A stretch of DNA of 24,000 nucleotides from Methanothrix sp. (GCF_030055635.1 NZ_JASFYM010000004.1:18541-42540), one strand, 5' to 3'; positions 665 through 24,000 are shown, counted from the first letter of the stretch. Numbers and translations are program-made. The notes: a model not told the origin generated them from the letters alone.

Positions 665-1013
665 GGTCAGGAGTGTGGCAGGCGATCTAATAAAGCTGCG
701 CACACAGCCAGCACAGCGAAAGCCATGCATCATCGGTTAAGGGTGGGTTTAACAGTGTGTGTGGTTCTGTGGCTGGCCACACGATATCCTGCATTAACCA
801 AAACAATACTCTTATTTTGGAAGAAAACATCCCTTATCTGGTTATTGGCTTTAATCTTATTCGGACAGATCCCAGAATATTTGAAAATTTTAATATAAGT
901 CGCTGGATCAATAAAAGCGGAACATATTAATATGCCACATTCAAGCTTTTAAGTCAAAACAAATGTAGTTATCTGAAAATCAGTCTGATGAAGGTTCATG
1001 AAATATCAACAAC

Positions 1014-2237: not shown

Positions 2238-2324
2238 ACGTTATGCACTGCTGCATGAGATTGGAACATAGTGAGAAACCAACCACCTTGTATCATATTA
2301 AATAAAATTATTTCAAATATATTT

Positions 2325-3653
2325 ATGAATAACAGAAATTTTGCTAGAGGAACGGCAGTCACATTTTGTGTAGGCATACTCAATTTGCTTTTGGGTATGG
2401 GAACTTCCGTCATTTTGGCCAGAATTCTGGGCCCAGAGGGTAATGGAGCATATTACATTGCTTTGCTTCTCCCTTCTTTTATCATAACTTTCGTCAACGT
2501 TGGGATTGGTCCTGCAACGGTCTACTACGTGGCCCGCGGTGAGTTTCGTTGGCAAGAGATTCTAGGGAATAACGTATTGCTCAGTATAGCTATTAGCGTC
2601 GCCGGAATTCTAACTGGTTTAATAGTTGTGATATTCTTTCGAGAAATAGTATTTCCCGGTATTATGACTGAATATCTTCTTCTAGCGTTAGTTCTTGTAC
2701 CATTGGAGATCTTTTTCTCCTACCTCCATTACATATTGCTTGGTGCACAGCGCATCGAGGATTATAATTACGCTCAGGTTTGTCAGTCTGTTCTTTTTTT
2801 TGGGTTTGTTTTTATTGCTCTTTTCCTTTTTAGAGCTGGAGTAGCTGGAGCAATACTTGCTGGAATATTTACGTGGATTATTGTAGATCTCATAATACTT
2901 CGATTAACTAAGAAGATTGCCGGAGGAATCAATTTTAAGCCCAACATTTGCTACATAAAGAGGGCAAGCAAATATGGTATTCAGGCGCATATATCAAATA
3001 TCCTGGGCTTTCTCAATTACCGGATAGACATGGTTCTTGTGAATTTCTTTTTAGGACCTGCAGCCGTTGGGCTTTACGCTGTGGGGGTCGGGCTGGTAGA
3101 AAGGCTCTGGATCATCTCCCAATCTGCTAGCACAGTTTTATTCCCAATAGTTTCTGCAGAGACTAATGAGCGTAGTAGGAAAGATTTTACTCCCTTAGTA
3201 GCTCGTACAGTAATGTGGATAACTACATTAGGCGCTTTAGCTTTCGTGTTTTTTAGTCGTTATATTGTACTTCTTCTGTATTCTGAGAAGTTTTTGCCCA
3301 CAGTCGGCGCTTTGCAGGCATTACTACCTGGGATAATAGCGCTTAGTGCTGGTAGAGTGTTGGCGAACGACATTGCTGGGCGGGGATTTCCACGCCTGAA
3401 TATTTACAGTGGAGTAGCTGCTGTAATTACTAATGTGGCCCTCAATCTATTATGGATTCCCACCTACGGGATTGTAGGTGCTGCTTGGGCTTCTACAGTA
3501 TCATATGTGGCTTCGTTCCTATGCTTTATCTACTTTTATTCTAAACTATCCGGCAACCGATGGAGCATAGTTGTTTTACCGCAAAAGGGTGATTTTTCAC
3601 TCTACTGGAAGAGTGCTAAAGCAACATTTAAGTGGGTGTGTTGGTGGAGGTAA
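2325..3653 (+). CDS. Polysaccharide/oligosaccharide flippase, Wzx / MOP superfamily (AglR-like)
   Basis: Highly hydrophobic product of about 440 aa with many predicted TM helices. The N-terminus NFARGTAVTFCVGILNLLLGMGTSVILARILGPEGNGAY is typical of Polysacc_synt family flippases. ATG 2325 is preferred over the track start 2271, whose extra codons are non-hydrophobic and AT-run derived. Confidence 0.8.
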   Translation: MNNRNFARGTAVTFCVGILNLLLGMGTSVILARILGPEGNGAYYIALLLPSFIITFVNVGIGPATVYYVARGEFRWQEILGNNVLLSIAISVAGILTGLIVVIFFREIVFPGIMTEYLLLALVLVPLEIFFSYLHYILLGAQRIEDYNYAQVCQSVLFFGFVFIALFLFRAGVAGAILAGIFTWIIVDLIILRLTKKIAGGINFKPNICYIKRASKYGIQAHISNILGFLNYRIDMVLVNFFLGPAAVGLYAVGVGLVERLWIISQSASTVLFPIVSAETNERSRKDFTPLVARTVMWITTLGALAFVFFSRYIVLLLYSEKFLPTVGALQALLPGIIALSAGRVLANDIAGRGFPRLNIYSGVAAVITNVALNLLWIPTYGIVGAAWASTVSYVASFLCFIYFYSKLSGNRWSIVVLPQKGDFSLYWKSAKATFKWVCWWR

Positions 3654-3716
3654 GAACTTTGAATCTAAGCTGCATCTGGAGTGGATCAAACAACTATAAA
3701 TTGTGGGGAGGTCAAG

Positions 3717-5567
3717 TTACACTGTCTGAGGTTGCAAATCATAAGCCCTTAACCAGAGTTCAAGATTGATAACCCTCCATATAAGTTCACTCCAGTTTTT
3801 TTGCACATTGTGTTTATCCTCTATCATTTTCTCAATCACTTCTGAGCGCCAGTACGGCCTAGACCTGAATTTATCTGATTTTATTATACTAAGAACCATA
3901 TCTCTAAACTGCTTGTTTTCAAGCCAATTATCATCTGGCGTTGCGAACCCAATCTTATCCTTACGTGATAGGATCATCTCAGATACAAGACCCTTTAGTG
4001 CCCTTCGCAGTATATATTTAGTAATGCCGTTCCGTATCTTTAAATTTGCAGGAAGGCCGGAAACAAACTCTACCAGCCGATAGTCCAAAAAAGGTACTCT
4101 CGATTCTATGCTCCACCGCATGGAGTTCTTGTCCTCGTAGCGTAAAAGCTGCGGTAGGCTGTACTTAATAAGATCGCTCCAGAGCGCATGGTTCAGGCTG
4201 AAACCTCTCTCCTTTATAATATTGACACTGGATCCTTTATAGAAAGGTTTGAGATATTTTAGCCTTTTGTTCCAGAGATAATGAAAAACAGAAGTAAGGC
4301 CAAGCTTTAAAGCAATTGTTGCCGAAAAAAATAGCATTAATTCTAATGGTGTTTCTTCTGCTGACTGCAATGCTTTTGCAGCTTCACGTAGCTGCATGTG
4401 AATTAAAGAATCAAAAATATAATATTTCATATAAATTCGATAACCTGCAAATAGTTCGTCAGCACCTTGGCCATCCAGTAGGACTTTCATTCCCGTTTCA
4501 TTTGCTAGCTTCATAACACGATACTGACCATATATGCTCAAAGAACGAAATGGTTCCTCCTGTGTGCGAATAAGGTCCTGTAGATCCGCAATCAGATCTT
4601 CGGTGGTAGGAGTTACCGTGAATGCATTAACTTTTGTATCCTTAACAACCTCACGAATATAATGCGATTCGTCCATCCTATGATTAGGAAAAACCATAGA
4701 AAACGTATTAATTAATTGATTGATCTTGGATTTCTTCATGATGTAAACAATGGCTGATGAGTCAATTCCACCACTCAGACAGGACCCAACAGGAACATCA
4801 GCAATAAGTCTATATCGGACACTGTCCTCTAAAAGGGATCGTACCTTTGCTTTAACCGTCTCCTCATCGTAAAAATCCGTTCTGGGGATTTTATTTAAAC
4901 GATCTTTTAAGTTGTACCAAGAGATTAGTTTCATATCCTTTCGCTGGAGATCATAAATCATATTTTCTCCAGGCATAAGTCTGTGAATGCCTGAGAAGAA
5001 CGTCTCACGTCTGTGATCCATTAAACCAAACGCCAGATAATCATATATGACGCTGTCTTCTGGATGCACTTTGAAATCGTGCTCTAATATTCCTTTAATC
5101 TCTGAGCAAAATATCAAGCCTTTATCGCTGATATGATAGTACAGTGGCTTTACACCAAACCTATCTCGGCTGAGGAAAAGCTCTTTTTTCGCTTTATTGT
5201 AGATTGCAAAGGCCCACATGCCATTAAATTTCTCCACGCAATAAGGGCCCCACTCCTCATATGAATGCAATACCACCTCGGTGTCGGTTTTGGAGCGAAA
5301 TTTATGACCTGCAGAAACAAGTATTGAGCGAAGTTCCACAAAATTATATATTTCTCCATTATATACGATCCACATGCTTTCATCTTCATTGGGCATCGGC
5401 TGATGACCAGCAGACGAAAGATCGATTATAGAAAGCCTGCAATGACCCAAGCTTACGAGCTCATCTATGTATGTACCGGCATCATCTGGACCTCTGTGTT
5501 TTATCGCATGATTCATCTTTGAGATTAGCTCTTGATCATTCCAGGTAAAGCCACATATTCCGCACAT
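3717..5567 (-). CDS. asnB: Asparagine synthase (glutamine-hydrolysing)-type amidotransferase
   Basis: MCGICGF N-terminus supplies the Ntn nucleophile Cys directly after Met, so the start is at 5567 rather than 5594. PP-loop CLSGGIDSSAIV. C-terminal YEDKNSMRWSIESRVPFLD block typical of AsnB. Length is about 616 aa. Confidence 0.85.
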   Translation of the reverse strand: MCGICGFTWNDQELISKMNHAIKHRGPDDAGTYIDELVSLGHCRLSIIDLSSAGHQPMPNEDESMWIVYNGEIYNFVELRSILVSAGHKFRSKTDTEVVLHSYEEWGPYCVEKFNGMWAFAIYNKAKKELFLSRDRFGVKPLYYHISDKGLIFCSEIKGILEHDFKVHPEDSVIYDYLAFGLMDHRRETFFSGIHRLMPGENMIYDLQRKDMKLISWYNLKDRLNKIPRTDFYDEETVKAKVRSLLEDSVRYRLIADVPVGSCLSGGIDSSAIVYIMKKSKINQLINTFSMVFPNHRMDESHYIREVVKDTKVNAFTVTPTTEDLIADLQDLIRTQEEPFRSLSIYGQYRVMKLANETGMKVLLDGQGADELFAGYRIYMKYYIFDSLIHMQLREAAKALQSAEETPLELMLFFSATIALKLGLTSVFHYLWNKRLKYLKPFYKGSSVNIIKERGFSLNHALWSDLIKYSLPQLLRYEDKNSMRWSIESRVPFLDYRLVEFVSGLPANLKIRNGITKYILRRALKGLVSEMILSRKDKIGFATPDDNWLENKQFRDMVLSIIKSDKFRSRPYWRSEVIEKMIEDKHNVQKNWSELIWRVINLELWLRAYDLQPQTV

Positions 5568-5750
5568 CACATGATGTTTTGAGAGACTAGGCAAAGTATT
5601 TTGCGGATAGACCTATTTTAAGGCATATCTAGTTGAATCCACTCATTAGTATAGAATAATAATAGAACCCTCTGATCCAGAAAGCTCTACTCAATCTGGA
5701 TCTCCGGTAATTTGCGGATGTGATCCTAAGTTGTTATGAAGATACGAACA

Positions 5751-6953
5751 TCAAGATAGAGTATTATAAAGCCCAACCAAGGTATTTGCAGATTTTTCCC
5801 AGTTGAAGCGAGTCTCTGCTGCCATTTTACCATTCTTTCCGAGCTGCTCAAGCATTCCTTTAGATTTGGCCTCTATGACTTTCATGGCAAGATCTTTGTG
5901 GTTACCCGCCTGAAATATTATTCCGCATTTGGACTCGGATATCATCCTTTTAAGGGATGCAACATCACTAGCCAAAATGGGCTTTCCATAATACATATAT
6001 TGGCACATCTTATGGGGAAAAGATTTCTCTGTAAGACGGTTTCGGTCGTATGGCAAAGCACATAGGTTGCTGATTTTAATATACTTCATCGCTTCGATAA
6101 ATGGAATCCAACCCGTAAAAGTCACGTGGTTATCTAACTTTAGCTCTCTAACTAAATTCCTGAGTTTTGCTTCGATTAAACCATCTCCCACCAAGATCAG
6201 ATGCGCCTCAGGAATTGATGAAATGATTAAAGGCATAGCCTTCAACAAAGTTTCTAATCCTCTGTGGTTTGAGAAACCCCCTACATAAGAAATTATGAAT
6301 TTTTTATCAAATTTTTGGAGACCGGATGTCTCTGATACAACTTCTGATATATTATCAAGTTCATCCAAATCTACTGCATTATGCACAACAAAGATTTTTT
6401 CTTTTGGATAACCCATCTTTACCAGTCTGTCGATCTCTTCCTCAACAACTACTATTATACGGTCTACACATTTAAGACAAAACTTTTCTTCTATGGCTAA
6501 AATCTTAGATAGCAAGATTATAGCAGCGCTCTTTATACCCTTCTCTGTCTTGAAACCCCAAGAGTAAATCATTTCCACATAATCTTCATGCATATCGAAA
6601 ACTACTGGTTTCTTCAGTAGTCTGCCAGCAACACAGGTCGCTAATGCAAGAGGAAGATCATGCACATGAAGGACGTCGGCTCTATTTTTAACAGATGTTT
6701 TTATAATATGAAATACTAATAAATATCTATATAGAAAATAATATAAAAATCCGCCTAGCGACTGGACGTCGTAAAACGGAAGGTTGACCCTGTTTATCTT
6801 TATCTGATCTAAGGTTTCTTCACTTTTTTGGCTTTTTCCTTTCCTGCATAATAAAAACACACTATGCCCAGCCTTTGAAAGTGATTTCGATTCCTTTTTA
6901 ACCCTGATATCTGGAGGATATAAGTTATCAGACAGTATCATCTGTATGTTCAT
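5751..6953 (-). CDS. Glycosyltransferase, GT-B fold, GT4 (WbuB-like KxxxY subtype)
   Basis: About 400 aa. HVHDLPLAL N-domain motif. C-domain FISYVGGFSNHRGLETLLKAM...LILVGDG...FPHKMCQYMYYGKPILASD. The track start is TTG 6995; ATG 6953 (MNIQMILSD) is preferred. Confidence 0.8.
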   Translation of the reverse strand: MNIQMILSDNLYPPDIRVKKESKSLSKAGHSVFLLCRKGKSQKSEETLDQIKINRVNLPFYDVQSLGGFLYYFLYRYLLVFHIIKTSVKNRADVLHVHDLPLALATCVAGRLLKKPVVFDMHEDYVEMIYSWGFKTEKGIKSAAIILLSKILAIEEKFCLKCVDRIIVVVEEEIDRLVKMGYPKEKIFVVHNAVDLDELDNISEVVSETSGLQKFDKKFIISYVGGFSNHRGLETLLKAMPLIISSIPEAHLILVGDGLIEAKLRNLVRELKLDNHVTFTGWIPFIEAMKYIKISNLCALPYDRNRLTEKSFPHKMCQYMYYGKPILASDVASLKRMISESKCGIIFQAGNHKDLAMKVIEAKSKGMLEQLGKNGKMAAETRFNWEKSANTLVGLYNTLS

Positions 6954-7035
6954 GCTCTCAGATCCACCCCTAAGTACATTAGAGATGTAACCCAAACCAC
7001 GACAGCACGTATAACTTCCAGTCCAACACTCCCAT

Positions 7036-8013
7036 CTACCCCCACACCCTCTCGTACACCTCTTTCACCCGCTCCACGTTCTCCTCCCAGAACCTGTAGT
7101 CGCTCTCCTTCATTCTTTCAGGCTCTCTCTCCATGCTCTCCTCCACTGCGCCTCTAAGCTCGTTGCTCCTCACGACCCTGAGGTTCTTCCTCTTCTCCTC
7201 CAGAGTGATCCCAGCAGCGACAACCTGCTTTCCCAGGTTCAGGTACTCGTTCAGCTTCCATATGCTCTTGTCTGTTGAGTACAAGGTAAGCGCGTTCTCC
7301 CTTCTCGGTATTATGCAGACTCTGGCCCTTCTCACAAGCGCTGCGACCCTGGTGTGCGGCTGCCAGCCGAGCGCTTTAACGTTCTCTGTCTTTCTCCTGA
7401 GGTACCACCATGCGAACGGCCCGCCTCCCACGATCCAGAACTCCCTCTCCTGCATATCCCTCGCGAGCCTGAGAAGTGAATCAATGCCCTCCTGCTCGCA
7501 TACCCGCCCGACGAATATCACAGCATCCTCTGACTCGAGATCATCTCCAACCTCCGTGAAGCTCCTCTGCGGGTAATTTGGGATCACATGTATCTCCTTT
7601 CCGGGCGCATAGGACCTGGCCTTCTCCTTCAAAGGGGTGTTCACCGTGGTTATAAGATCAGCAGCCTCAGCCAGCTGCCGCTCGAAGCGCTCGCATACAC
7701 CCCTCGCGATGGAACCGAAGCGCAGCTGCGTCTCCACACCCCATGGGGATCTGTAGTCGTATATGAGGCGTCTGTATCCAGATCCACGCAGCGCGGGAAG
7801 CCAGTGGTATATGACATCAGGAACGTTGAAGAGATGAACGACATCAGGCCTTTCCCTCAGAATGATCTCTCTGGCCTTTCTTGCTATGGAGATCCAGTTG
7901 ACCGTACCAAATCTCGGGACCACGGTCTCATATCCGAGATCCCTCAGCGTAGCCTCGAAGAGCCTGAGCCTCGTCGTCCTCTCCGGCTGGTTTGCAAGAA
8001 GCAGCACCCTCAT
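7036..8013 (-). CDS. Glycosyltransferase (GT-B-like, short)
   Basis: 325 aa and GC-rich. MRVLLLANQPE start, VVHLFNVPD, IFVGRVCEQEGIDSLLRLA...WIVGGGP, and KLNEYLNLGKQVV in place of the EX7E segment. The assignment rests on motif layout only. Confidence 0.65.
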   Translation of the reverse strand: MRVLLLANQPERTTRLRLFEATLRDLGYETVVPRFGTVNWISIARKAREIILRERPDVVHLFNVPDVIYHWLPALRGSGYRRLIYDYRSPWGVETQLRFGSIARGVCERFERQLAEAADLITTVNTPLKEKARSYAPGKEIHVIPNYPQRSFTEVGDDLESEDAVIFVGRVCEQEGIDSLLRLARDMQEREFWIVGGGPFAWWYLRRKTENVKALGWQPHTRVAALVRRARVCIIPRRENALTLYSTDKSIWKLNEYLNLGKQVVAAGITLEEKRKNLRVVRSNELRGAVEESMEREPERMKESDYRFWEENVERVKEVYERVWG

Positions 8014-8063
8014 CTGAGTTCATCTCCACCTTCGAGCAGCGGTGGTTGCAGTTCCTGCTCTCA

Positions 8064-9185
8064 TCAATCTTCCGCAGCCCTCCTCAGCACGCCCTCGTAC
8101 CTGGCTGCAAGGGCACGCCAGTCGTATCTCTCAGCGATCTCCCTGTACCTTCTCCGATCCTGTGGACTCTCCAGAATCCTTTTGACCTGCTGTATGAAGC
8201 TATCTCTGTCATCATAGTAGTAGAGGCTGTCCCCGAGAAGCCGCTCGAGCGAGAGCATTCTTGTGGTGAGAACAGGCCTGCCGCATGCGAGGTAGTTGAA
8301 GATCTTGCCGCCTGCGGCATACTCGTTCTTCTTCATCATTCTCAGAGGATTGAGACCTATGTCCATCGCAGATATGTACCTGCCGAGCTCCGCGTAAGGC
8401 ACAGCTCCAGTGAAGATGATCCTGTCCCTAATACCCAGCCTCTCAGCCATATCCTTTATGCGCTCGCCGTAGTCCGTGAACAGGCTCGGGCCCACAACGA
8501 GCAGTGTGACATTGAGCTCAGGAAGAGCGCTCACAACGGTCTCGAGATCGACCCAGTACTCCAGCGATCCGACGTAGCCTATCACATCGCCCTCAAGGCC
8601 AAGAGCGCTCTTGGCCTTCCCGGCGTCGATCGGTTTCAGGAGAGCTGTATCCACGCCGTTCGGAATGACCTCGACATCACGAACACCGATGCCCCTGAGA
8701 TACTCTTTGAGCTCCTGGGTCACGGTGATCACAGCCCTGGCGTGCCTGAGGTTGTACCTTGTGATCGCCCTGACCCCGAGCTTGACAGCCCTGCCGAAGA
8801 GCGATCCCGGGTAGTATATCGATGCGGACTCCTCCAGGTGATCGAGATAGTCGAAGACCACCGGAGCATCTGTGAGGTTCGCCATGAGCGAAGGGAGTAT
8901 GTTCGCTGAGAGTATCACATCAGAGTCACTGGCAGCATCGCGAATCACGCGGAGATGAGATAAAGCGCTTGTGATGTAGTAAATGGACGGGTCCTCAGCT
9001 CTGGAGGATCCTGCCCTCACAAGAGAGCATCTCGTCCATCTCGGGCTGTTATCCCTGAACCTCGAGAGCTCGAAGTGCAGGACCCGCACATCATGCCTCT
9101 CCGCTATTATATCGAATATGAAATTCAATCGATTTGGAAATGGGTGCCTTATCCAGTCGGTTGTAGGTATGACCAGTATCTTCAT
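8064..9185 (-). CDS. Glycosyltransferase, GT-B fold, GT4
   Basis: MKILVIPTTDW start (ATG 9185; the track start 9209 adds 8 codons). IGYVGSLEYWVDLETVVSAL...LLVVGP...IFTGAVPYAEL...GGKIFNYLACGRPVLTT. Confidence 0.8.
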   Translation of the reverse strand: MKILVIPTTDWIRHPFPNRLNFIFDIIAERHDVRVLHFELSRFRDNSPRWTRCSLVRAGSSRAEDPSIYYITSALSHLRVIRDAASDSDVILSANILPSLMANLTDAPVVFDYLDHLEESASIYYPGSLFGRAVKLGVRAITRYNLRHARAVITVTQELKEYLRGIGVRDVEVIPNGVDTALLKPIDAGKAKSALGLEGDVIGYVGSLEYWVDLETVVSALPELNVTLLVVGPSLFTDYGERIKDMAERLGIRDRIIFTGAVPYAELGRYISAMDIGLNPLRMMKKNEYAAGGKIFNYLACGRPVLTTRMLSLERLLGDSLYYYDDRDSFIQQVKRILESPQDRRRYREIAERYDWRALAARYEGVLRRAAED

Positions 9186-13853: not shown

Positions 13854-15065
13854 TCAGAGCAGGCTTCTCCTGTCAGCGAGCCCCAGAATATTGAGCAGCC
13901 CGAGCAGGTTCTCCCTGGATATCGATCCGTCGGAGACCTTCTTCAGCACATCCTTCGCATTGAATGCCACTCCAAGTCCCGCATTCTGTATCATGATGCA
14001 GTCATTCGCCCCGTCCCCGACAGCGACGATACTGTCAGGGCTTATTCCCTCGATCTCAGCGAGCCGCTTGACTATCTCCCCCTTCGCCTCTGCATCGATT
14101 ATCTCGCCCTTGATCTCCCCAGTCAGACGGCCGTCCTGTATCTCCAGCTCATTGGCGAATGTGTAGTCGAAACCCAGCCGCTCCTTCAGGACATCTGTGA
14201 AGTATGTGAACCCTCCGCTTATGAGCGCTATCTTGTACCCCATCTGCTTCAGGTGGTGTATGAGCTCCTCCGAGCCGGGAGTCAGGGAGAGCTGATCCGC
14301 GATCTCCTTCAGCGCAGAGACCGGCATGCCCTTCAGAAGCCTCACGCGGCGTCTGAGCGATTCCTCGAAATCGATCTCGCCGTTCATGGCCTTGTCTGTT
14401 ATCTGCCTGACCTCCTCATCGACGCCAGCGAAGCTTGCAAGCCTGTTTATTATCTCGAAGTCCACAATCGTCATATCCATGTCGAAGACGATCAGGCGCT
14501 TCTCCTTTCTGGCCTTATCCAGCCTCTGGACCACGACATCGAGGCCCAGACGCTCGCACTCTGATCTGATCCACTCCCTGCACTCGTCCGGATCGGATTC
14601 ACCGAAGTCCATCACGAACTCTATGGATATCAGATCGCCGCGCGCTGTCACCGCAGCCCTCTCGATGTTGATGTCCCTGGCGGACGCGACAGATGCGACA
14701 TCTCTTATAATTCCAACCCTGTCCCGTGCTATTATAGTGACCACATAGAGGTTCTTCCTGCTCCTCCTTATTCCACGGTACCTCTCCAGCGGCAGGAACA
14801 TGCACTGGATCCCAAGTGACTCAGAGCGTCTCTGCATCTCCCCCTCAAGCTCCTCTGGTGTGATCGCTGCCCTGCTGAAATCCGCGACCACAGACATGAT
14901 GAACAGACCCTGGAGCACCCTCTGATCCATGTCCACTATGTTCACATTCCGCTCTGCGGGGAGCTGGAGTATATCGCGTATGAGGCCGGGCCGGTCCCTC
15001 CCCACGAATGATATCACCCACAGGTCTTTAAAATGATCTTCAGGATTGGCGCACATAACCAGCAT
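13854..15065 (-). CDS. serB: Phosphoserine phosphatase with N-terminal tandem ACT domains
   Basis: HAD motif I is LIVFDMDMTIVD, motif II is ALISGGFTYF and motif IV is GDGANDCIMIQNAGLGVAFNAK. Two ACT-like repeats are present: VISFVGRDRPGLIRDI and VVTIIARDRVGIIRDV. Confidence 0.85.
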   Translation of the reverse strand: MLVMCANPEDHFKDLWVISFVGRDRPGLIRDILQLPAERNVNIVDMDQRVLQGLFIMSVVADFSRAAITPEELEGEMQRRSESLGIQCMFLPLERYRGIRRSRKNLYVVTIIARDRVGIIRDVASVASARDINIERAAVTARGDLISIEFVMDFGESDPDECREWIRSECERLGLDVVVQRLDKARKEKRLIVFDMDMTIVDFEIINRLASFAGVDEEVRQITDKAMNGEIDFEESLRRRVRLLKGMPVSALKEIADQLSLTPGSEELIHHLKQMGYKIALISGGFTYFTDVLKERLGFDYTFANELEIQDGRLTGEIKGEIIDAEAKGEIVKRLAEIEGISPDSIVAVGDGANDCIMIQNAGLGVAFNAKDVLKKVSDGSISRENLLGLLNILGLADRRSLL

Positions 15066-15302
15066 GCTCCTTCGTCCATCTCAGTGAATCTGCCGTATGA
15101 GTTCTGACAGTGATGTGCAAAGCGCGGATGCAGCTCATTGAGGGCAGCCTGCTGTTTCTCGATCCCATGCGCTCCCGGGAGCCACCTCCGCAGAGCGGGC
15201 GTTCAGAGGGGATCTCCGGGCCTGAGATCTGATCCGGCCTGTGCTCATGCGTGCGCAAAAGAAATCTGGAGACGGATGACATTGGGCGTGATGGATGCAT
15301 TT

Positions 15303-16204: not shown

Positions 16205-17728
16205 ATGGTCGTTATGGCATTAAATACAATAGACAGAGATGTGGCTTCCGTCTGTCCGGTGTGTCTCAGGACTGTAAGTGCGCACATATTCCAGCGGGAT
16301 CAGGCGGTCATGATCCGGAAGTCCTGTCCGGAGCATGGAGAGTTCGAGGATGTCTATTGGTCCGATGCCGAGCTTTACAGAAGGTTTATGAGATATGTTG
16401 AGACTGGCAGAGGCATAGAGAACTTCATCACAAAGGGAGACTGCCCGCTCAGCTGCGGTCTCTGTGATAACCATAAAACCTCAACGCTTCTCGCGAACAT
16501 AGATGTTACGACGAGATGCAACCTCGCATGCCCGATATGCTTTGCAGATGCATCTCCAAAGAGGGTCTACGAGCCCACAATGGAGCAGATCGAGCGCATG
16601 CTGAGGATCCTGCGGGAGGAGCGACCTGTACCATGCTACGCTGTGCAGTTCTCGGGCGGAGAGCCCACTGTACGTGAGGATCTCCCTGAGATAATGGCCC
16701 TCGCCAGGAGCATGGGCTTCACGCAGATCCAGATCGCCACAAATGGCCTGAGGCTTGCGTCATCCCCAGGTCTTGCGAGAGAGCTCAGCGAGGCTGGACT
16801 GAGCACGGTCTATCTCCAGTTCGATGGGGTGGATGAAGGGCCGTATATCAAAATGAGGGGCAGGGACCTCCTCGGCGTGAAGCTCCGCGCGATAGAGTCC
16901 TGCAGGAGAGGTGGGCTGAATAGCGTGGTTCTGGTACCGACTGTCGCGAAGGGAGTTAATGACGTTCAGCTGGGAGAGATCATAAGATTCGCGAGCCGTA
17001 ATGTGGATGTCGTCCGCGGGGTCAACATGCAGCCCATATCATTTGCGGGAAGGGTCGAGGAGGCGGAGCGAAAATCGAACAGGATCACCATACCTGACCT
17101 GATACTCTCCATCGAGGAGCAGACTGATGGGGAGATCTCCAGGGATGATTTCTATCCGGTCCCCTTCGTCGCCCCGGTCTCAAGGATCGTGGAGGTGCTG
17201 ACCGAGAGGCCCAGACTTGTCTTCACAGTCCATCCATGCTGCGGTGCTGCCACCTACGTCTACTGTGAGGGAGACAGGCTGATACCCATAACGAGGTTTG
17301 TGGATGTGGAGGGCCTGATGGAGAGGCTCAGGGATATCCTGCAGGACTACAACGGATCGAGGATATCAAGGCTGAAGATTCAGGGGTCACTTCTGAAGGA
17401 CCTCCCAGGGTTTATAGATGAGAGCAGAGCCCCGAAGGATCTGCACATCACAAAGCTCCTGATGAATGTGCTCAGAACAGGCACCTTCGATTCGCTGAGG
17501 GAGTTCCACTCAAGGAATCTGTTCATAGGCATCATGCACTTCCAGGATCTGTACAACCTGGATCTAGAAAGGGTCAGCAGATGCGGTATACATTACGCCA
17601 CCCCGGATGGCAGGATCATACCGTTCTGCACGTACAACACGATCCACAGGAGCGAGGTGGAGAATCGGTACTCCATCGCTGAGGCATGCGCACCGCCACA
17701 GCGTCTGGGTGTGTCTCCGGTCACATAG
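16205..17728 (+). CDS. Radical SAM enzyme with N-terminal Cys/His ribbon and auxiliary cluster motifs; Tes / GDGT-MAS (tetraether lipid synthase)-like architecture
   Basis: CPVC...CPEHG ribbon at aa 17-44. A first CX3CX2C, CPLSCGLC, lies at nt 16442-16465. The radical SAM CX3CX2C, CNLACPIC, lies at nt 16517-16540. QFSGGEPT SAM-binding motif. C-terminal Cys-rich HPCCGAATY and CGIHYATPDGRIIPFCTYN. The radical SAM call is strong; the Tes-family call is from memory of that family's layout. Confidence 0.8.
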   Translation: MVVMALNTIDRDVASVCPVCLRTVSAHIFQRDQAVMIRKSCPEHGEFEDVYWSDAELYRRFMRYVETGRGIENFITKGDCPLSCGLCDNHKTSTLLANIDVTTRCNLACPICFADASPKRVYEPTMEQIERMLRILREERPVPCYAVQFSGGEPTVREDLPEIMALARSMGFTQIQIATNGLRLASSPGLARELSEAGLSTVYLQFDGVDEGPYIKMRGRDLLGVKLRAIESCRRGGLNSVVLVPTVAKGVNDVQLGEIIRFASRNVDVVRGVNMQPISFAGRVEEAERKSNRITIPDLILSIEEQTDGEISRDDFYPVPFVAPVSRIVEVLTERPRLVFTVHPCCGAATYVYCEGDRLIPITRFVDVEGLMERLRDILQDYNGSRISRLKIQGSLLKDLPGFIDESRAPKDLHITKLLMNVLRTGTFDSLREFHSRNLFIGIMHFQDLYNLDLERVSRCGIHYATPDGRIIPFCTYNTIHRSEVENRYSIAEACAPPQRLGVSPVT

Positions 17729-17874
17729 CTGCTCCCCCGTTTAAATCCGGCCTGCAGATAGGCACAGCGACTTCACGGGTGCCTGCCGGTTCCTGGCGCA
17801 GCTGCCGGCCGCACATCCTGCAGATTCGCCCCGCGCACGCCGGTGAAAACAATCTCCCAAAGGAGGATGGCAGC

Positions 17875-18810
17875 ATGAGATACTCAGTGGAGTTGATATC
17901 GCCAGAGAGAAAGATCGAGCTCGCCGAGGAGTACGCGGATCAGGTCCTGTATGAGGTCAAATCCGAGATATACGGATGCTGCATAAAGCTCCTCACAGGC
18001 ATGCGTGACGTGAGGGGCAGGTGGGAGGATAGCTTCTACTTCATGTCCCAGAGCGTCCGCTCCCACGGGCGGATGTATGTTGTTAATGATCCAGGCGGGA
18101 AGAACCGAGTTCTCTATGATCCCCATTCGAAGACCGCGTTCCTTTTGAACTTCGATTACTATGGATGGATAAAGTCTCTGGCTTTATCACTTGCTGGAGA
18201 CATACTGGAGGATGAGCACGGTATCCACTCGGTGCATGGCGCATGCCTTGACCTCGATGGCAGGGGCATATGCATCATCGGAGGCCCTGGCACGGGAAAG
18301 ACGACCCACACCTACGGCCTTCTCAGGGATCCCAGGGTGAGGGTGGTATCGGATGACTGGTTCTTCGGGAGGATCTACGGCAAAGATGTCCTGGGCTACG
18401 GATCCGAGAAGAACTTCTACATAAGATCTGAGCTCTCGGGCATCTGGAGGGAGTTCTCCTGGCTTGTGGAGAGGGCGGAGCTCGATTCCATGGGTCGTGG
18501 AGTCGTAGACCTGAGATGGGCCATAGGGAAGGGCAGAATACTGCCTCTCACCACCATCCGACACGTGTTCATTCTCAAACGAGATCATTCAGACAAACAG
18601 ATCGTACGTCTCTCTTCTGAGGATGCCCTTCAGATAGTCGAAAAAAACGGTTACTTCAACCCCCATCTGCTCGTCGATGGGGATCTCAAGAGGAGGATAC
18701 GGAGCGGGTTCTTCAGGGCGATGCTCTCCAGCGCATCTGTATGGGAGGTCAACACCACAGGAACGCCTGAGGAGACCCAGTCTATGATAAGAGATGCGAT
18801 CGGCGTTTAG
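17875..18810 (+). CDS. HPr-kinase C-terminal-domain-like / PEPCK-like P-loop protein, function unknown
   Basis: P-loop IIGGPGTGKTT (nt 18280-18306 covers GGPGTGKTT), followed 17 residues later by VVSDDWFFG. This is the GxxGxGK[ST]...[LV][IV][AS]DD spacing of HprK/PEPCK-type kinases. GGAGG at 17862-17866 lies 8 nt before ATG 17875. The track's longer start at 17686 overlaps the radical SAM 3' end and adds Ala/Arg/Pro-rich sequence. Confidence 0.6.
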   Translation: MRYSVELISPERKIELAEEYADQVLYEVKSEIYGCCIKLLTGMRDVRGRWEDSFYFMSQSVRSHGRMYVVNDPGGKNRVLYDPHSKTAFLLNFDYYGWIKSLALSLAGDILEDEHGIHSVHGACLDLDGRGICIIGGPGTGKTTHTYGLLRDPRVRVVSDDWFFGRIYGKDVLGYGSEKNFYIRSELSGIWREFSWLVERAELDSMGRGVVDLRWAIGKGRILPLTTIRHVFILKRDHSDKQIVRLSSEDALQIVEKNGYFNPHLLVDGDLKRRIRSGFFRAMLSSASVWEVNTTGTPEETQSMIRDAIGV

Positions 18811-18827: not shown

Positions 18828-19211
18828 TCACCTGATGTCCATCTTCACCTTTCCCATCGAGGAGAGGTAGGCCACCTCCTTTCCGGGCTCGAGCTTCGAC
18901 TTCATATCCTCTGTTATCGGCACATCTATGGTTGTGTAGTCCTTGAGATCCATGAGCTGAACACTGGTCTCACCCACTGAGAGCACCTGCCCTGTCTTCC
19001 GCTCGACTATCGGAGCGTAGACCTTTGTGGTGACCGGTGCAACGATGGACCGCTTCTGGTTGTCGAATATGCCTATCGCGTCTATCCTCGCCTTGGCAGC
19101 TCCATGCTTGCCAGGCTTCGAATGCGCTATGCTCTTTATTATGCAGGGCTCGTCATCGATTATTATGTACCTTCCTTCCTTGAGCGTCCTTATCTCTACT
19201 TGCTCCTTCAT
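18828..19211 (-). CDS. eif5a: Translation initiation factor 5A (aIF5A)
   Basis: The full 127-aa product has the hypusine/deoxyhypusine loop SKPGKHGAAKARI; the modified Lys is K35, nt 19107-19109. A C-terminal OB-fold region is present. Confidence 0.95.
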   Translation of the reverse strand: MKEQVEIRTLKEGRYIIIDDEPCIIKSIAHSKPGKHGAAKARIDAIGIFDNQKRSIVAPVTTKVYAPIVERKTGQVLSVGETSVQLMDLKDYTTIDVPITEDMKSKLEPGKEVAYLSSMGKVKMDIR

Positions 19212-19504: not shown

Positions 19505-20485
19505 ATGAACTGCAGATCGACAGTCTTCCTGATGGCCATCATGCTCATCTCCGCCACAGCTGCAGAGTGGCCTGGCTGCAAGTTCCAGTGCACTGCCAAG
19601 GATGTGGTGGTTGAGAGAGCATATCTCGGAGACGCATCAGGCAACCCCCTCCAGCCCTGCTCTCAGGGCGCTGCCTCGAGTGCATACATCTGGATCACCA
19701 TAACAAACAGGGCCAGCGCTCCGAGGTACAACCTGGTTCTGCTCGCGGATCTCGTTATTAATGGCGATCTCGAAAGAATCGAGAGATGCGTGCTTGATGT
19801 TTTAGAGGGCAAATCGACCAGGTCTTTCCCCATATACAAGATTGAGTGGAACTGCGGTGAAGAACTGCGCATAAAAGATGTGATCCTGAGCTGGGAGACA
19901 TCCGGAGCGAAAGCTTGCGATATATCAAGGATGAAATGCGGCGAGAGGACGACGCAGTGCTATGCATACCCAGAGATGAGAGTCGACATCCCGCTCTCAG
20001 CAGGTTTTGGGTATAAGGCGAGCTGCCGTAGTGTAAATCTCATAGATCTGACGAGGGGCGGAGCAGCTCCCTACACCTACGACTGGGACCTGGGCGATGG
20101 GAGCAGGAGCTCTGCGGCAAATCCGGTGCATGCATATTCGCGTCCGGGGAGATACCTCGTAACTCAAAACGTAACCGATTCAAAGGGCAGATCAGCCAGG
20201 AGCTCATCTCTCATAATAATCGAGGGATGCTCCTGCGAGATCGATGGACCTGAGGTGGCATGTGAGGAATCGGTTCAGAGATACACAGCAAACGCCACCG
20301 GCAGAGAATACATATGGATGCTTGATGGCCGGGAGATCGGACGCGGAGAGAGCGTGGAGATCTCATGGTCGGAATCCGGCGCTGGAATCCACGAGCTCCG
20401 GCTGATCGCAGCTAACATTTCGTGCGTGAAAGAGATAAGAGTCATACCAAAGCCAGAGATCTTCATATCATTTGTGGAGGAATGA
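19505..20485 (+). CDS. Secreted PKD-domain surface protein
   Basis: Signal peptide MNCRSTVFLMAIMLISATAAE from ATG 19505; the track GTG 19424 adds a Cys-rich leader. A Cys-rich N-domain follows. A classical PKD motif, YTYDWDLGDGSRSSAANPVHAYSRPGRYLVTQNVTDSKGRS, lies at about 20050-20225. A further Ig-like module follows. The stop TGA 20483-20485 overlaps the next ATG. Confidence 0.8.
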   Translation: MNCRSTVFLMAIMLISATAAEWPGCKFQCTAKDVVVERAYLGDASGNPLQPCSQGAASSAYIWITITNRASAPRYNLVLLADLVINGDLERIERCVLDVLEGKSTRSFPIYKIEWNCGEELRIKDVILSWETSGAKACDISRMKCGERTTQCYAYPEMRVDIPLSAGFGYKASCRSVNLIDLTRGGAAPYTYDWDLGDGSRSSAANPVHAYSRPGRYLVTQNVTDSKGRSARSSSLIIIEGCSCEIDGPEVACEESVQRYTANATGREYIWMLDGREIGRGESVEISWSESGAGIHELRLIAANISCVKEIRVIPKPEIFISFVEE

Positions 20486-23400
20486 CGCTGCTCTCATCCA
20501 GGATCCGAGGATTCGCGGTGATGGTGCTTCTCGTAGCTGCGTGCTCCGCAGATGATGGTAGGAGCATCACTCTCACCGGACCTGAGGGGGATTACATCTA
20601 CCACTGGATCGCACAGGTGGATGATGAGGTGATCGCCCAGGGTGATGAGCGTATATTCACATTCCAGCTTCCCGAGACGCCAGGGAAGAGGGTGAAGGTC
20701 ACGCTTCTTGTTAAATCCATTGAGGGCGGATGCGTCAACAGCTCCTCGATAGAGATCGTGACGGGACAGCTCGGCAGGTCCGAGATACATCTCGATAAGG
20801 ACTGTGTGTACACAAAACCGGTCCATGTTGGCGATTCTGTTATCTACACCTACAACGTCTCTAATACAGGGGAAAGCGATCTTTTCGATCTCAATCTCAC
20901 AGACTCACACAGCTGGGGTCCTGGGTGTGAGCCCGTTTACATCAGCGGGGATGATGGAGACGGCGTTCTCAACCCCGGGGAGACGTGGCACTACGAGGCG
21001 AGGTTCACGCTCCCGGATCCCAGGAAGTATGGCATGACAGGCGATGCGGTTCTCAGCATAATGGCAGCCCCGGATACGGGCGAGATCGTAAGGTCGCTGC
21101 TGAAGAGAAAGCAGAGGCTGGAGGCGAAGCTTTCCATCGTCAGAGAGAGACAGAGGAGCTTTAACCTCTCCAGAGCTCAGACATTCTCCTACATTAGACA
21201 AAGACTCAGGTTCGAGAACCATACGAACAGCATCACCGGGGAGTATCTCCTGGAGTCGTTCGATGCGGGCGGCGCTCTGATCTCCAAAGAGTACAGCGAC
21301 CCGATATCGCGCGCGAGGCTCAGAACCGAGTACAGGCGCGACGGTCGTGTATCCTCCGAGGAGTGTCTCTTCGAGCTGACAAGAGAGTACATTAAAATTG
21401 AGTACGATGCGCCATCTCCCGGGTATAAAACGTATACAATAACAGATTACACCACAGGAGACACGCTCATAGCGATTCAGGATCCTTTCGGGAATATCGT
21501 GAGCAAGGAGTACCGCAGGACCCCAGGCTACAGGGTGTACGAGGAGCGGGTCATGCTCACGAACATCGCAACAGTCACGGCCAGGGATGCCAGCGGTCTT
21601 GTGGTATCTGCGATCGACACCTTCACGCTCGATGTTCTCAGGCCTCTGCCCGCGCTCAGGGTCTACAAGAGCTCCGATCCTGAGATCGCATTTCGCGGCT
21701 CGTTCCTGAACTACACGATCAGCTATGAGAACGCGGGATCTGAGGATGCGCATGGTGTTGTGATAAGGGAGCACTACGATGGAAACTTCAGCTTCATCTC
21801 CTCATATCCACCACCCGACTCCGGCACGAACGTGTGGAATATCGGGGATCTGAGAGCAGGAGAGTCAGGCACGATACGCATCCTGGGAAGGACATCAGAT
21901 GAAGCAGATCTCATAACGAACAGGGTCGAGATCCGTAGCGCTGATGGGTCCGGTGATGAGTATGTTCTTAATACCACGGTCGTCAGCACAGGCCTAAACA
22001 TAAGCAAGAGCGCGTCACCAGGTCTCGTGGTGCCTGGATCGAGACTGACGTACAGGATAAAGTACAGCAACGATGGGTCATACACACATAAAGACGTCCG
22101 CATAACTGACATTTTAGATCCCACGGTGGAGTACCTTAGCGCGTCTCCGGCACCGTCTCATACCTCTGGTAACACCTACACCTGGAGCATACCGGAGCTC
22201 GCGCCCGGCGCTGGCGGGGAGATCGAGATCAAGGTACTGGTCGGAAGCACTGACAGGGATTTCATCGTCAACACATACCGCATAGATTCTGACAGATTCA
22301 CGGGGGTTAACAGCACCCTCATCACAGGTGTAATCCAGAGCCTGTGGGTGAACAAGAGCTCTGACAAGGATGTGTACGCGCCAGGCGAGGATGTCGTGTT
22401 CACGGTGAGATTCGGCAACAAAGGAAACTACGAGGCGCATGATGTCAACCTCACGGATGTGCTCCCTGACCTGGAGCTTATAAGCGCCTCTGGCAACCCC
22501 TCCGCGAGGGGCAGGACGCTCGTGTGGAACATCGGAGATCTGAGAAGCGGCGAGAACGGGACGGTGGTGATAACGATGAGGGTGCCGGAGAGATCGAACC
22601 TCATTTACAATGAGAGCTCAAGCGTCTCTGGAGAGGGTTTCGTCAGGGTCAGAAAGAGATTCTCGACTGCCATCGAGTCTAAGTCGCACACAAACAGGGC
22701 GTACATCACCGGGTACTACAGCGATGATGGGAGAAAGGTTTACCACAACGCCTCGACCTCGAAGAGCATAACGGTCGCAGGAGATCCGGGATCTGAGATC
22801 AGGACAGGAGAGCACGGGAGCGGCTACTACGAGGAGGAGCTCCTGGCGAACCTCAACCTCTCGAGCAGGAACGTCTCAGTTGAGAAGGATCTCTTCGCGG
22901 AGCAGAGGCCCACAAGCTTCTCTCTGCCCCGGAGAAAGATCGAGTTCAGATCATCATGGTTCGAGAGCACCGAGTCCAGGAACCGGAATCGGGGAGAGAT
23001 GATCGAGGGGAGCTACATGTACGCCAGGTCCCTGGATCTGAGCAGCAGGTACCAGGCCGACCCGAACCAGACCACCTTCAGGGAGGTCTCGGAGGTGGAG
23101 CAGGGCGTCATGCGCATTAGATACGTCTCGAGGGATACATCATCGCTCATAGACGAGAGATACGCGGGGAGCTTCAGATCTGAATCATCGATCGACTCAT
23201 ATGGAAGCGGTCTTGCGTACAGGAGAGCATCATCCGGAGAGGGTTTTGTCGGTTCTGAGCTCCGTGCAGGATCGATGGAGTCCAGGGAGAGCGGCAGCGG
23301 TTACTATCGCTCAGACCTGATCCGCCAGACCGAGATCATGAAAAGAGATCTTGAGGCGTCGAGCTCAGATGTGAACACGACGCTGGACGGGAGGGAGATC

Positions 23401-24000
23401 AGGTTCAGCAGCCTCTGGCATGAATCATCAATGACAGAGGACCGATCAAGGGATCTAGCGATGATGGAGCGCATAACCCATGCGAGGTACATCAGGATGG
23501 AGTCTGAGCTCAGCAGATCAACCCTCTCGATGCTGGGGGAGTTCGAGGGGAGAGGAGAGATCAGAGCCACGATGGGCAGGCCTGAGACGCTCCGGGTTGA
23601 GCAGGATCTCGCCGGCATGTACACAGTAGATCTCGCGGTGAGCGTTTACGCCGTGCCGAAGCATCTCTATCCTCACATCAACATCACGAAGATGGCGGTG
23701 CCTGTCGATGAGAACAATGTGCTGTTCATCATAAATGTGACAAACGATGGGAACGAGCCGCTGAGGGATGTGATTGTCAGAGACGTGCTTCCCGAGGGTC
23801 TGGAGATGATCAACTCCACGCTGCGGCCTTCGATGGAGGGAAGATGCATCAACTGGAGCATACCGCTCCTGGAGATCAGCAGGAGGATGGAGATAAGGCT
23901 CTTCGCAAGCATGGATCCTGAGATTGATATCTTCGAGAATCACGTCAATGTGGCAGCAAGAGCTGAGAAGGGTGATGTATCAGCAGAGGCCTCCGTCAGG
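20482..24000 (+). CDS. Giant secreted/cell-surface repeat protein, 5' partial (at least 1173 codons, continues beyond the window)
   Basis: I read every codon by hand in the frame aligned to position 1. There is no in-frame stop from ATG 20482 to base 24000; the nearest upstream in-frame stop is TAA 20413-20415. The N-terminus MTLLSSRIRGFAVMVLLVAACSADD has a signal peptide with a lipobox-like VAAC. A CARDB/DUF11-like domain with GDDGDGVLNPGETWHY lies at about 20791-21018. A basic, possibly coiled segment lies at 21080-21230. It also carries a YD-like stretch, four DUF11-type repeats and two SGEGFV/GSGYY modules. It is not in the supplied ORF track. Confidence 0.85.
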   Translation, partial: MTLLSSRIRGFAVMVLLVAACSADDGRSITLTGPEGDYIYHWIAQVDDEVIAQGDERIFTFQLPETPGKRVKVTLLVKSIEGGCVNSSSIEIVTGQLGRSEIHLDKDCVYTKPVHVGDSVIYTYNVSNTGESDLFDLNLTDSHSWGPGCEPVYISGDDGDGVLNPGETWHYEARFTLPDPRKYGMTGDAVLSIMAAPDTGEIVRSLLKRKQRLEAKLSIVRERQRSFNLSRAQTFSYIRQRLRFENHTNSITGEYLLESFDAGGALISKEYSDPISRARLRTEYRRDGRVSSEECLFELTREYIKIEYDAPSPGYKTYTITDYTTGDTLIAIQDPFGNIVSKEYRRTPGYRVYEERVMLTNIATVTARDASGLVVSAIDTFTLDVLRPLPALRVYKSSDPEIAFRGSFLNYTISYENAGSEDAHGVVIREHYDGNFSFISSYPPPDSGTNVWNIGDLRAGESGTIRILGRTSDEADLITNRVEIRSADGSGDEYVLNTTVVSTGLNISKSASPGLVVPGSRLTYRIKYSNDGSYTHKDVRITDILDPTVEYLSASPAPSHTSGNTYTWSIPELAPGAGGEIEIKVLVGSTDRDFIVNTYRIDSDRFTGVNSTLITGVIQSLWVNKSSDKDVYAPGEDVVFTVRFGNKGNYEAHDVNLTDVLPDLELISASGNPSARGRTLVWNIGDLRSGENGTVVITMRVPERSNLIYNESSSVSGEGFVRVRKRFSTAIESKSHTNRAYITGYYSDDGRKVYHNASTSKSITVAGDPGSEIRTGEHGSGYYEEELLANLNLSSRNVSVEKDLFAEQRPTSFSLPRRKIEFRSSWFESTESRNRNRGEMIEGSYMYARSLDLSSRYQADPNQTTFREVSEVEQGVMRIRYVSRDTSSLIDERYAGSFRSESSIDSYGSGLAYRRASSGEGFVGSELRAGSMESRESGSGYYRSDLIRQTEIMKRDLEASSSDVNTTLDGREIRFSSLWHESSMTEDRSRDLAMMERITHARYIRMESELSRSTLSMLGEFEGRGEIRATMGRPETLRVEQDLAGMYTVDLAVSVYAVPKHLYPHINITKMAVPVDENNVLFIINVTNDGNEPLRDVIVRDVLPEGLEMINSTLRPSMEGRCINWSIPLLEISRRMEIRLFASMDPEIDIFENHVNVAARAEKGDVSAEASVR
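21655..22590 (+). repeat. Three tandem DUF11 / TIGR01451-type 'conserved repeat domain' units inside the giant ORF
   Basis: Units lie at 21655-21987, 21994-22335 and 22342-22590. Each starts hydrophobic-x-K-S, then G(S/E)xLxYxIxYxNxG, then a hydrophobic DxL(D/P) strand, then W(N/S)I(G/P)(D/E)L..GE.GTI.I. Examples are NVWNIGDLRAGESGTIRI, YTWSIPELAPGAGGEIEI and LVWNIGDLRSGENGTVVI. Confidence 0.75.
22615..23640 (+). repeat. Two copies of an uncharacterised SGEGFV ... GSGYY ... (K/E)I(E/R)F(R/S)S.W.ES module inside the giant ORF
   Basis: Copy A, from 22615: SGEGFVRV..(52 aa)..EHGSGYYEEELL...RRKIEFRSSWFESTESRNRNRGEMIEGSYMYARSLDLSSR. Copy B, from 23221: SGEGFVGS..(17 aa)..ESGSGYYRSDLI...GREIRFSSLWHESSMTEDRSRDLAMMERITHARYIRMESELSR. 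Confidence 0.6.
23683..24000 (+). repeat. Fourth DUF11-type repeat of the giant ORF
   Basis: ITKMAVPVDENNVLFIINVTNDGNEPLRDVIVRDVLPEGLEMINSTLRPS...CINWSIPLLEISRRMEIRLFA. The order of elements matches the repeats at 21655-22590. Confidence 0.65.

Follow-up and report, generated by a model that had tools for sequence, protein, structure and literature searches.

The window analysed here is a stretch of 24,000 nucleotides from Methanothrix sp. (GCF_030055635.1, NZ_JASFYM010000004.1:18541-42540). Its end is occupied by a long + strand gene that starts at the ATG at position 20482 and runs off the window at base 24000, directly preceded by a smaller gene on the same strand. An earlier note, made by a model from this DNA alone, had drawn attention to the larger gene as a giant surface-protein gene that the mechanical list of open reading frames (ORFs) did not show. 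Its statement that the frame contains no stop is correct, since translation of the interval yields 1173 sense codons. With a stop frequency of 0.046 per codon at the base composition of the window, an open run of this length has a chance of about 1.3e-24. The frame is missing from the ORF list only because ORFs that are still open at an end of the source are not reported by the listing program. The view that is best supported by our analyses is that the product of this gene is a surface protein of the sheathed methanogen genus Methanothrix, with a mass of about 135 kDa, exported by the Sec pathway and heavily N-glycosylated, and the gene is an added member of a recently described class of immunoglobulin (Ig)-decorated sheath (SH) proteins known from computation.

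The + frame is the coding frame and is under purifying selection. Indeed, the GC content at the third codon position (GC3) is 0.69 as compared to 0.51 at position 1 and 0.45 at position 2, and the nucleotide differences from an orthologue that is 86% identical (locus L001) are distributed over the codon positions 1, 2 and 3 as 100, 76 and 362. These differences amount to 286 synonymous and 161 non-synonymous codon changes. The five minus-strand ORFs that the note had regarded as shadows of the gene (20905..21774, 21774..22124, 22114..22440, 23304..23624 and 23518..23943) are all present in the mechanical ORF list, and this presence is the one argument for the idea that 20905-21774 and the others are the true products while the + frame is unexpressed. 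We consider this idea so improbable that it can be set aside: the substitution pattern and the GC3 value fit the + frame, the strong Pfam and NCBIfam matches belong to it, orthologues of 40% identity keep it open for 1236-1292 codons, and long antisense ORFs are to be expected opposite a gene with 69% GC3.

The start codon at position 20482 shares bases with the stop codon of the gene before it (ATGA) and is the same as in the public annotation of an identical protein. The preceding in-frame stop lies 22 codons further upstream, and there is no plausible earlier start in between. The identical protein was found by a word-indexed search of 5.8 billion proteins (WP_348530588.1 / MDI9616245.1; 100% identity over the length in the window). 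It has 1237 residues, has been deposited as 'DUF11 domain-containing protein [Methanothrix sp.]', and is annotated in Methanothrix metagenome-assembled genomes (MAGs). The C-terminus (residues 1174-1237) described below was read from this protein and not from the contig of the window. The gene is indeed the largest in the window, the next largest encoding 625 residues. However, the description 'giant' does not hold: the gene is real and of ordinary size, only 64 residues of its product lie outside the window, orthologues in three Methanothrix MAG contigs have 1236, 1236 and 1292 residues, and the gene had not been overlooked but was already annotated in NCBI. The family comprises about 50 clusters with 35-88% identity, and the named clusters all belong to Methanothrix or Methanotrichaceae or are labelled only as Euryarchaeota. 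Near-family lengths range from 1064 to 1713 residues. Conservation figures given in the following refer to a family alignment of 49 sequences with a mean identity of 40%, on which the whole-protein AlphaFold2 model was also built (mean predicted local distance difference test (pLDDT) score of 81).

From the N- to the C-terminus, the protein consists of a signal peptide, an Ig-like domain, a DUF7507 domain, a basic helix, a ladder of beta-hairpins, three CLIPPER (DUF11) domains, a tandem module of long beta-strands, a fourth CLIPPER domain and a Cys-rich tail (Table 1). The Pfam search on the + ORF also matched DUF7619. The whole protein had no match among the PDB sequences in a phmmer search. 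The Foldseek matches of the whole-protein model in the PDB were generic multi-Ig proteins (complement, integrins, ciliary proteins; template modelling (TM) score ≤0.14), and these were discarded as uninformative.

Table 1. Features of the main gene and its upstream partner, with positions counted from the first base of the window.
Feature	Residues	Nucleotides	Strand	Remarks
Partner gene, secreted Cys-rich protein	326 aa	19505..20485	+	signal peptide, N-terminal domain, PKD, Ig-like; 4-bp overlap with main gene (ATGA)
Main gene coding sequence, DUF11/CLIPPER sheath-core protein	1-1173 of 1237	20482..24000	+	last 64 codons and stop lie beyond the window
Signal peptide	1-24	20482..20553	+	basic n-region (R7, R9), FAVMVLLVAA, then C21-S-A / DD; read from sequence
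N-terminal Ig-like beta-sandwich	28-93	20563..20760	+	six predicted strands (AlphaFold2)
DUF7507/CLIPPER_2 Ig-like domain	101-177	20782..21012	+	Pfam PF24346, E 1.6e-23, 83 bits, best stretch 101-177
Long basic alpha-helix	197-225 (29 residues)	21070..21156	+	AlphaFold2, pLDDT 84-90
Ladder of ten short beta-hairpin strands and two long strands	233-386	21178..21639	+	AlphaFold2, pLDDT ~90
CLIPPER domain 1	392-500	21655..21981	+	Pfam DUF11; candidate triad K396/E430/N480, all three ≥90% conserved
CLIPPER domain 2	503-617	21988..22332	+	best Pfam DUF11 stretch 505-604; candidate triad K509/D543/N597
CLIPPER domain 3	619-702	22336..22587	+	TIGR01451 best stretch 625-671; candidate triad K625, D659, Asn N738
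SH amyloid-like core domain 1	~703-903	22588..23190	+	motif EHGSGYY, strands of 15-22 residues; SH-core HMM 20.7 bits (aa 750-900)
SH amyloid-like core domain 2	904-1056	23191..23649	+	motifs DSYGSG, SGEGFV, ESGSGYY; SH-core HMM 57.4 bits (aa 904-1055)
CLIPPER domain 4	1062-1173	23665..24000	+	Pfam DUF11; candidate triad K1070/D1101/N1153; D1101 and N1153 invariant

The part of the protein that carries its interpretation is the tandem module. The earlier note had pointed out a duplication here and had left it unassigned. The duplication is genuine (residues ~778-905 against 936-1050, BLASTP E 1e-7), but the module can be assigned to the SH core by profile comparison. In the whole-protein model, residues 708-1054 form an array of about 350 residues of antiparallel strands, each 15-22 residues long (pLDDT ~90). 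Residues 700-1062 modelled alone consist entirely of long antiparallel strands, with a pLDDT of 88.9 and a predicted TM (pTM) score of 0.82. Foldseek searches of the PDB and BFVD with the isolated module returned only long-strand beta-barrels, pore-forming toxins and similar structures (best E 0.015, TM ≤0.2), and the matches of the module to Pfam were noise only. A profile of the module matched 279 representatives among 1.84 billion proteins, mostly over the whole module of about 370 residues and in host proteins of up to 3778 residues. Those matches that are named belong to Methanotrichaceae.

In a survey based on structures and profiles, the SH core has been defined as two six-stranded sheets; SH variants with Ig-like chains were termed 'sheath adhesins', and 63 proteins were found to have 2-3 cores in succession (Medvedeva, Borrel & Gribaldo, ISME J 2024, PMC11576556). 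We took six SH-core sequences, all of them from two-core proteins, from the alignment in Supplementary Data 3 of this survey. The module profile scored 65-95 bits on these six sequences versus at most 7 bits on 300 shuffled sequences, and hhalign aligned the module with the SH cores at 99.9% (E 5.8e-32, 165 columns). Reciprocally, when a hidden Markov model (HMM) of the six SH cores was applied, the window protein showed two cores and the family members listed showed two or three; DUF11 proteins from outside the family and without the module showed none (<2 bits). On this profile evidence, the duplicated module is the tandem SH core of Medvedeva et al. and, since the module matches SH cores, the protein falls in the Ig-decorated two-core SH class. 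The lengths of two-core Methanotrichales proteins in Table S1b of the survey (1301, 1292, 3778 and 1727 residues) equal those of our hits P0040, the L003 ORF, P0181 and P0110, respectively. An ANME-1 cluster archaeon encodes a protein of 1770 residues (P0055) with three SH-core HMM matches (residues ~1186-1710) besides DUF11, DUF7507, LTD and NosD matches, and the module is therefore not restricted to Methanotrichaceae. We also considered a resemblance of the module to the viral SH-like proteins in Data 1 of the survey, but the scores were at most 16 bits, which is near the shuffle level, and we make no claim in this respect.

The cores are flanked on both sides by DUF11 domains, which were renamed CLIPPER in a 2025 survey that described DUF11 proteins as typical stalks of fibrillar adhesins, and that reported an isopeptide bond in the domain structure 9IFR which gives thermostability and resistance to proteolysis (PMC12617251). 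The DUF11-type repeats reported for the window protein in the earlier note are clearly present. PF01345 was matched with 188.4 bits (cut-off 24.6; E 4.9e-56) and TIGR01451 of NCBIfam with 120.3 bits (cut-off 24), each over 5 stretches, and the AlphaFold2 model places three DUF11 domains at residues 392-700 and the fourth at 1066-1172. Each of the four domains carries a candidate Lys-Asp/Glu-Asn isopeptide triad. The triad residues of domain 1 are in register with the Lys, Asp and Asn columns identified as the triad of 9IFR in an alignment that is weak when taken alone (E 0.06); the residue count of the 9IFR Asp is one off the number printed in the paper, which we took as a numbering detail. 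The triads of domains 2, 3 and 4 were assigned by eye against domain 1, and this includes D543. All other triad residues, 11 of the 12, are invariant or conserved in at least 90% of the sequences: K509 and N597 in domain 2 are invariant, as are D659 and N738 in domain 3, of which K625 is at least 90% conserved. These patterns suggest that the corresponding bonds could form. A match of a single CLIPPER domain to phycobilisome linkers in the PDB (phmmer) was dismissed as chance.

Judged from the order of secondary structure elements in the window interval 22336-22800 (residues 619-745), the sheath core begins with a long hairpin that precedes the strand holding the Asn of domain 3 ('HTNRAYI', N738), and the same strand order is visible in a two-core protein of M. 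harundinacea in the published alignment. In the model, the third CLIPPER domain and the sheath core thus appear to be interdigitated.

The N-terminal part holds several domains that differ in how well they can be assigned. The Ig-like and CARDB-like domains mentioned in the earlier note were recovered as DUF7507, which spans residues 103-176 in the AlphaFold2 model, and as a CARDB match marginally above its cut-off. The Ig-like domain that precedes DUF7507 gave nothing beyond noise in Pfam at E≤10 when searched in isolation; by eye, a likeness can be seen to the domain at the C-terminus of the partner protein. The proposed basic segment also exists, with 13 Lys or Arg versus 4 Asp or Glu in residues 201-250, and it overlaps the predicted long helix. 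The hairpin ladder that follows is specific to the family and many of its residues are kept in at least 90% of the family members. For the segment formed by the helix and the hairpins no match was found in Pfam or among PDB sequences. The 'YD-like' stretch of the note turned out to be a look-alike, as RHS/YD (PF05593) was not matched at E≤1 with the whole protein or at E≤10 with residues 195-392.

Export of the protein is indicated by an N-terminal signal peptide that is visible in the sequence by eye, as had been noted, and the first 26 residues have pLDDT values below 50. A hydrophobic stretch followed by an AxA-type site can likewise be seen by eye at the N-termini of most complete family members. 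The note had further read VAAC as lipobox-like. This sequence does fit the lipobox pattern [LVI][ASTVI][GAS]C in the window protein, but it is not conserved across the family: the Cys is confined to the closest clade, in which three of nine close orthologues (P0007, P0008 and L002) have Val at position -1 (LTVC or VSVC), and the members with 40% identity have ordinary AxA-type signal peptidase I sites and no Cys there. The sequence CSA|DD fits signal peptidase I, and cleavage after CSA appears at least as likely as lipobox processing. The protein contains 26 N-X-S/T sequons versus 9.0±2.7 in 1000 shuffled sequences, an enrichment of about three-fold, and its relatives carry 26-48 sequons. Such an enrichment is typical of archaeal surface glycoproteins. 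The guess of an envelope, sheath or adhesin glycoprotein was therefore a good one, in view of the sequons and of the sheath-core match.

At the other end, the tail (residues 1174-1237) is acidic and has 6 Cys in about 60 residues. These 64 residues of the full-length protein contain no hydrophobic segment, both properties being kept throughout the family, and Pfam gave no match to an archaeosortase or PGF-CTERM-type sorting domain, which places the protein outside the C-terminally membrane-anchored surface proteins. A Pfam search with the isolated tail gave noise only. In one family member (P0042) the sequence 'CGFVLDWLPCC' is found just after the last CLIPPER domain, and several Methanothrix viral SH-like proteins end in 'CGA(I/V)SVDWLPC(M/I)' (Data 1 of PMC11576556). 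This likeness may be a coincidence, as the profile scores to the viral proteins are not significant.

Of six related loci, five (L001-L005) have the partner gene directly upstream of the homologue of the main gene (tblastn E 1e-36 to 1e-177), and the match in L006 is weak. Judged by this synteny, the partner and the main gene are a conserved two-gene cassette, and the small PKD protein is probably a co-subunit or assembly factor. The SH-core HMM detected no core in the partner. Its N-terminal domain of about 170 residues is Cys-rich, begins with 'WPGCKFQC' and is 36% identical to that of the partner in a distant Methanothrix locus; searched against Pfam, this domain gave noise only.

How the protein relates to known systems was examined by comparison with five of them. 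Closest are the Ig-decorated multi-core SH proteins of Methanotrichales, with which it shares the signal peptide, the two consecutive SH cores, the Ig-like chains and a Methanothrix host (PMC11576556). That class has been defined computationally and in general terms; what is added here is the CLIPPER identity of Ig-like domains with intact triads, their position on both sides of the cores, the Cys-rich tail, the helix/hairpin module and the PKD partner gene. The SH protein of M. hungatei (Mhun_2271), known from a model based on electron cryo-tomography, is likewise a secreted protein of a sheathed methanogen with large antiparallel beta-sheets and cysteines proposed to link units (PMC10593813). 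Unlike the window protein, however, it has about 40 kDa, a single core and a helical cap, and it is the main building block of the sheath, where it has been located experimentally. With the CLIPPER fibrillar adhesins represented by 9IFR, the window protein shares an HMM match far above threshold, the triad in register and the tandem arrays in long secreted proteins (PMC12617251). Yet 9IFR is from a Gram-negative bacterium and has Asp where one triad of the window protein uses Glu, and for the CLIPPER adhesins known so far the anchor is a sortase, archaeosortase, OmpA-like or membrane segment. The window protein lacks all of these and carries sheath cores in their place.

A looser parallel for a role in adhesion may be seen in MTCT_1020 of Methanothermobacter sp. 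CaT2, also a large secreted methanogen protein with DUF11 repeats, where a nonsense mutation accompanies the loss of aggregation (PMC6759345). In contrast to the window protein, MTCT_1020 has 3162 residues, a C-terminal membrane anchor, CnaB/RrgB-like repeats and no SH core, and its host has a pseudomurein wall and no sheath. Lastly, OmcB of Chlamydia (Chlam_OMP6, PF03504) is a DUF11-related, Cys-rich envelope protein that was matched in Pfam with 35.0 bits against a threshold of 34.1. However, it belongs to a bacterial outer-membrane complex, the match spans one DUF11 domain, and the architecture is not shared.

It has been proposed that the sheath owes adhesive properties to SH proteins that carry Ig chains, and both a hoop architecture and disulfide links have been described for the sheath of M. 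hungatei (PMC11576556, PMC10593813). We consider it probable that the window protein is a sheath adhesin of this kind, with tandem cores built into the sheath hoops and an isopeptide-locked stalk that displays the distal domains for adhesion. Upon export, the two long-stranded beta cores would dock edge-to-edge with the major sheath subunits and so enter a hoop. Such docking would account for the lack of a transmembrane, lipid or archaeosortase anchor in the protein. The Cys-rich C-terminal tail may form disulfide cross-links. The CLIPPER domains, each with a spontaneous Lys-Asn isopeptide bond, would make up a heat- and protease-resistant stalk, from which the N-terminal Ig-like, helix and hairpin domains would project outward from the sheath and could make contact with surfaces, partner cells or neighbouring filaments. 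The small PKD protein, encoded on the same transcript, would act as a co-subunit or assembly factor. A bolder version, which we hold to be rather doubtful, takes the two-core module as a dedicated amyloid co-polymerisation anchor fused to an Ig stalk, the K625-N738 bond as a covalent staple between the stalk and the sheath-embedded sheet, and the PKD partner as an obligate co-subunit. If true, this would be a sortase-free route for fixing surface proteins into an amyloid cell wall.

Several points weigh against a sheath adhesin. Compared with five short and highly transcribed single-core SH proteins, including one from M. thermoacetophila PT, the module profile scored 3-17 bits with a best shuffle score of 10.9, and hhalign gave 25%. 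The link to a verified sheath protein thus runs through the published structure-based classification and not through our own comparisons, because our references all come from two-core proteins and the single-core SH proteins score near the shuffle level. The placement of any two-core SH protein in the sheath is itself a prediction. Moreover, the compact and confidently modelled two-core fold might be self-contained instead of polymerising, and the distal adhesive domains and their binding partner remain putative. Lastly, Ig-bearing SH genes were poorly transcribed in cultures of M. thermoacetophila (PMC11576556).

Some of these points would suit a free-standing fibrillar adhesin or envelope protein outside the hoops. 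Such a protein would be held at the cell surface by a lipid attached to Cys21, or it would bind to the S-layer or the sheath through disulfides or non-covalent contacts, and the module would serve as its self-contained base or binding domain. VAAC fits a lipobox in the window protein and in most close orthologues, the two-core module is one compact unit by its pTM score, and profile matches are predominantly to whole modules of about 370 residues, with no lone single cores among the longer proteins listed. In sequence, the module is also not significantly similar to the major SH proteins with a single core, and DUF11 proteins are typical stalks of fibrillar adhesins. Nevertheless, we regard this possibility as unlikely, since the lipobox is broken in one third of the close orthologues and absent at 40% identity while the whole family retains the tandem module and the Cys-rich tail, since the module shares homology with domains assigned to the sheath cores in a survey based on structures, and since no other anchor signal is present.

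Alternatively, the protein could sit in the sheath and have a structural task there, such as linking hoop to hoop, nucleating or terminating ring assembly, or tying spacer plugs, with the Ig domains as spacers and not as binding modules. The tandem SH cores and the Cys-rich tail would be consistent with this, given that disulfides join rings and hoops in M. hungatei, and so would the conservation of the architecture with a fixed partner gene across Methanotrichaceae. A possible role of minor SH variants in joining hoops or supporting plugs has also been pointed out, and such proteins are expressed at low levels (PMC11576556). However, adjacent hoops could be linked by something shorter than a stalk of five Ig-like domains with a distal helix/hairpin module, and the number of Ig domains varies widely, with lengths of 1064-1713 residues in the near family and up to 3778 residues for proteins with the module, which is typical of surface-exposed adhesins and would not be expected of invariable structural components. 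A purely structural accessory therefore seems improbable to us, and a sheath adhesin remains the interpretation that we prefer.

Methanothrix ranks among the major sources of methane worldwide, and the granules in anaerobic digesters have it as their backbone. To our knowledge, there is no explanation of how its sheathed filaments adhere to one another, to minerals, or to partners that are syntrophic or parasitic. Ig-decorated SH proteins are obvious candidates for such adhesion and, if this is true, an adhesin woven into an amyloid-like wall would represent an unusual anchoring principle. What we consider worth recording for the present gene are the CLIPPER domains flanking the cores, the possible isopeptide staple between stalk and core, and the conserved partner gene. 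The residue-level map of the signal peptide, four putative triads, two sheath cores, Cys-rich tail and partner gene makes the idea directly testable.

The earlier note had also taken the proximity of a glycan-biosynthesis cluster as support for an envelope glycoprotein. The cluster at a distance of 8 kb is real, but it says nothing specific about the main gene: it is not conserved in any related locus for which upstream sequence is available, and a functional tie by synteny was rejected because the neighbours differ in L002-L006. We therefore attach no functional weight to this proximity. Within the cluster, the interval 1000-7000 of the window has 37-43% GC versus about 55% elsewhere and encodes two GT4 glycosyltransferases, a Wzx/MurJ-like flippase and an asparagine synthase; this interval looks like a horizontally acquired part of the cluster. 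The stretch of normal GC content up to position 12272 holds more GT4 genes, a GlmU-like gene and GlmS.

Between the cluster and the cassette lies a + strand region (16205-18810) that encodes a radical-SAM protein with an HMPTM-type N-terminal zinc ribbon, which overlaps by 43 nt with an ORF of 374 residues for which the only match was a sub-threshold one to the HPr-kinase C-terminal domain. The aIF5A gene is located on the minus strand at 18828-19211. In the related locus L002, a second surface protein of 937 residues with five DUF7507 stretches and one DUF11 domain is encoded just upstream of the cassette (5938-8751), and a transposase of the rve family downstream of it (14468-15181). NosD/beta-helix 'copper-binding' surface proteins are encoded near the cassette in two distant Methanothrix loci (L003 7784-9976 and L004 13226-15199), and this type has been listed among the expressed surface proteins of M. 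thermoacetophila (PMC10470525).

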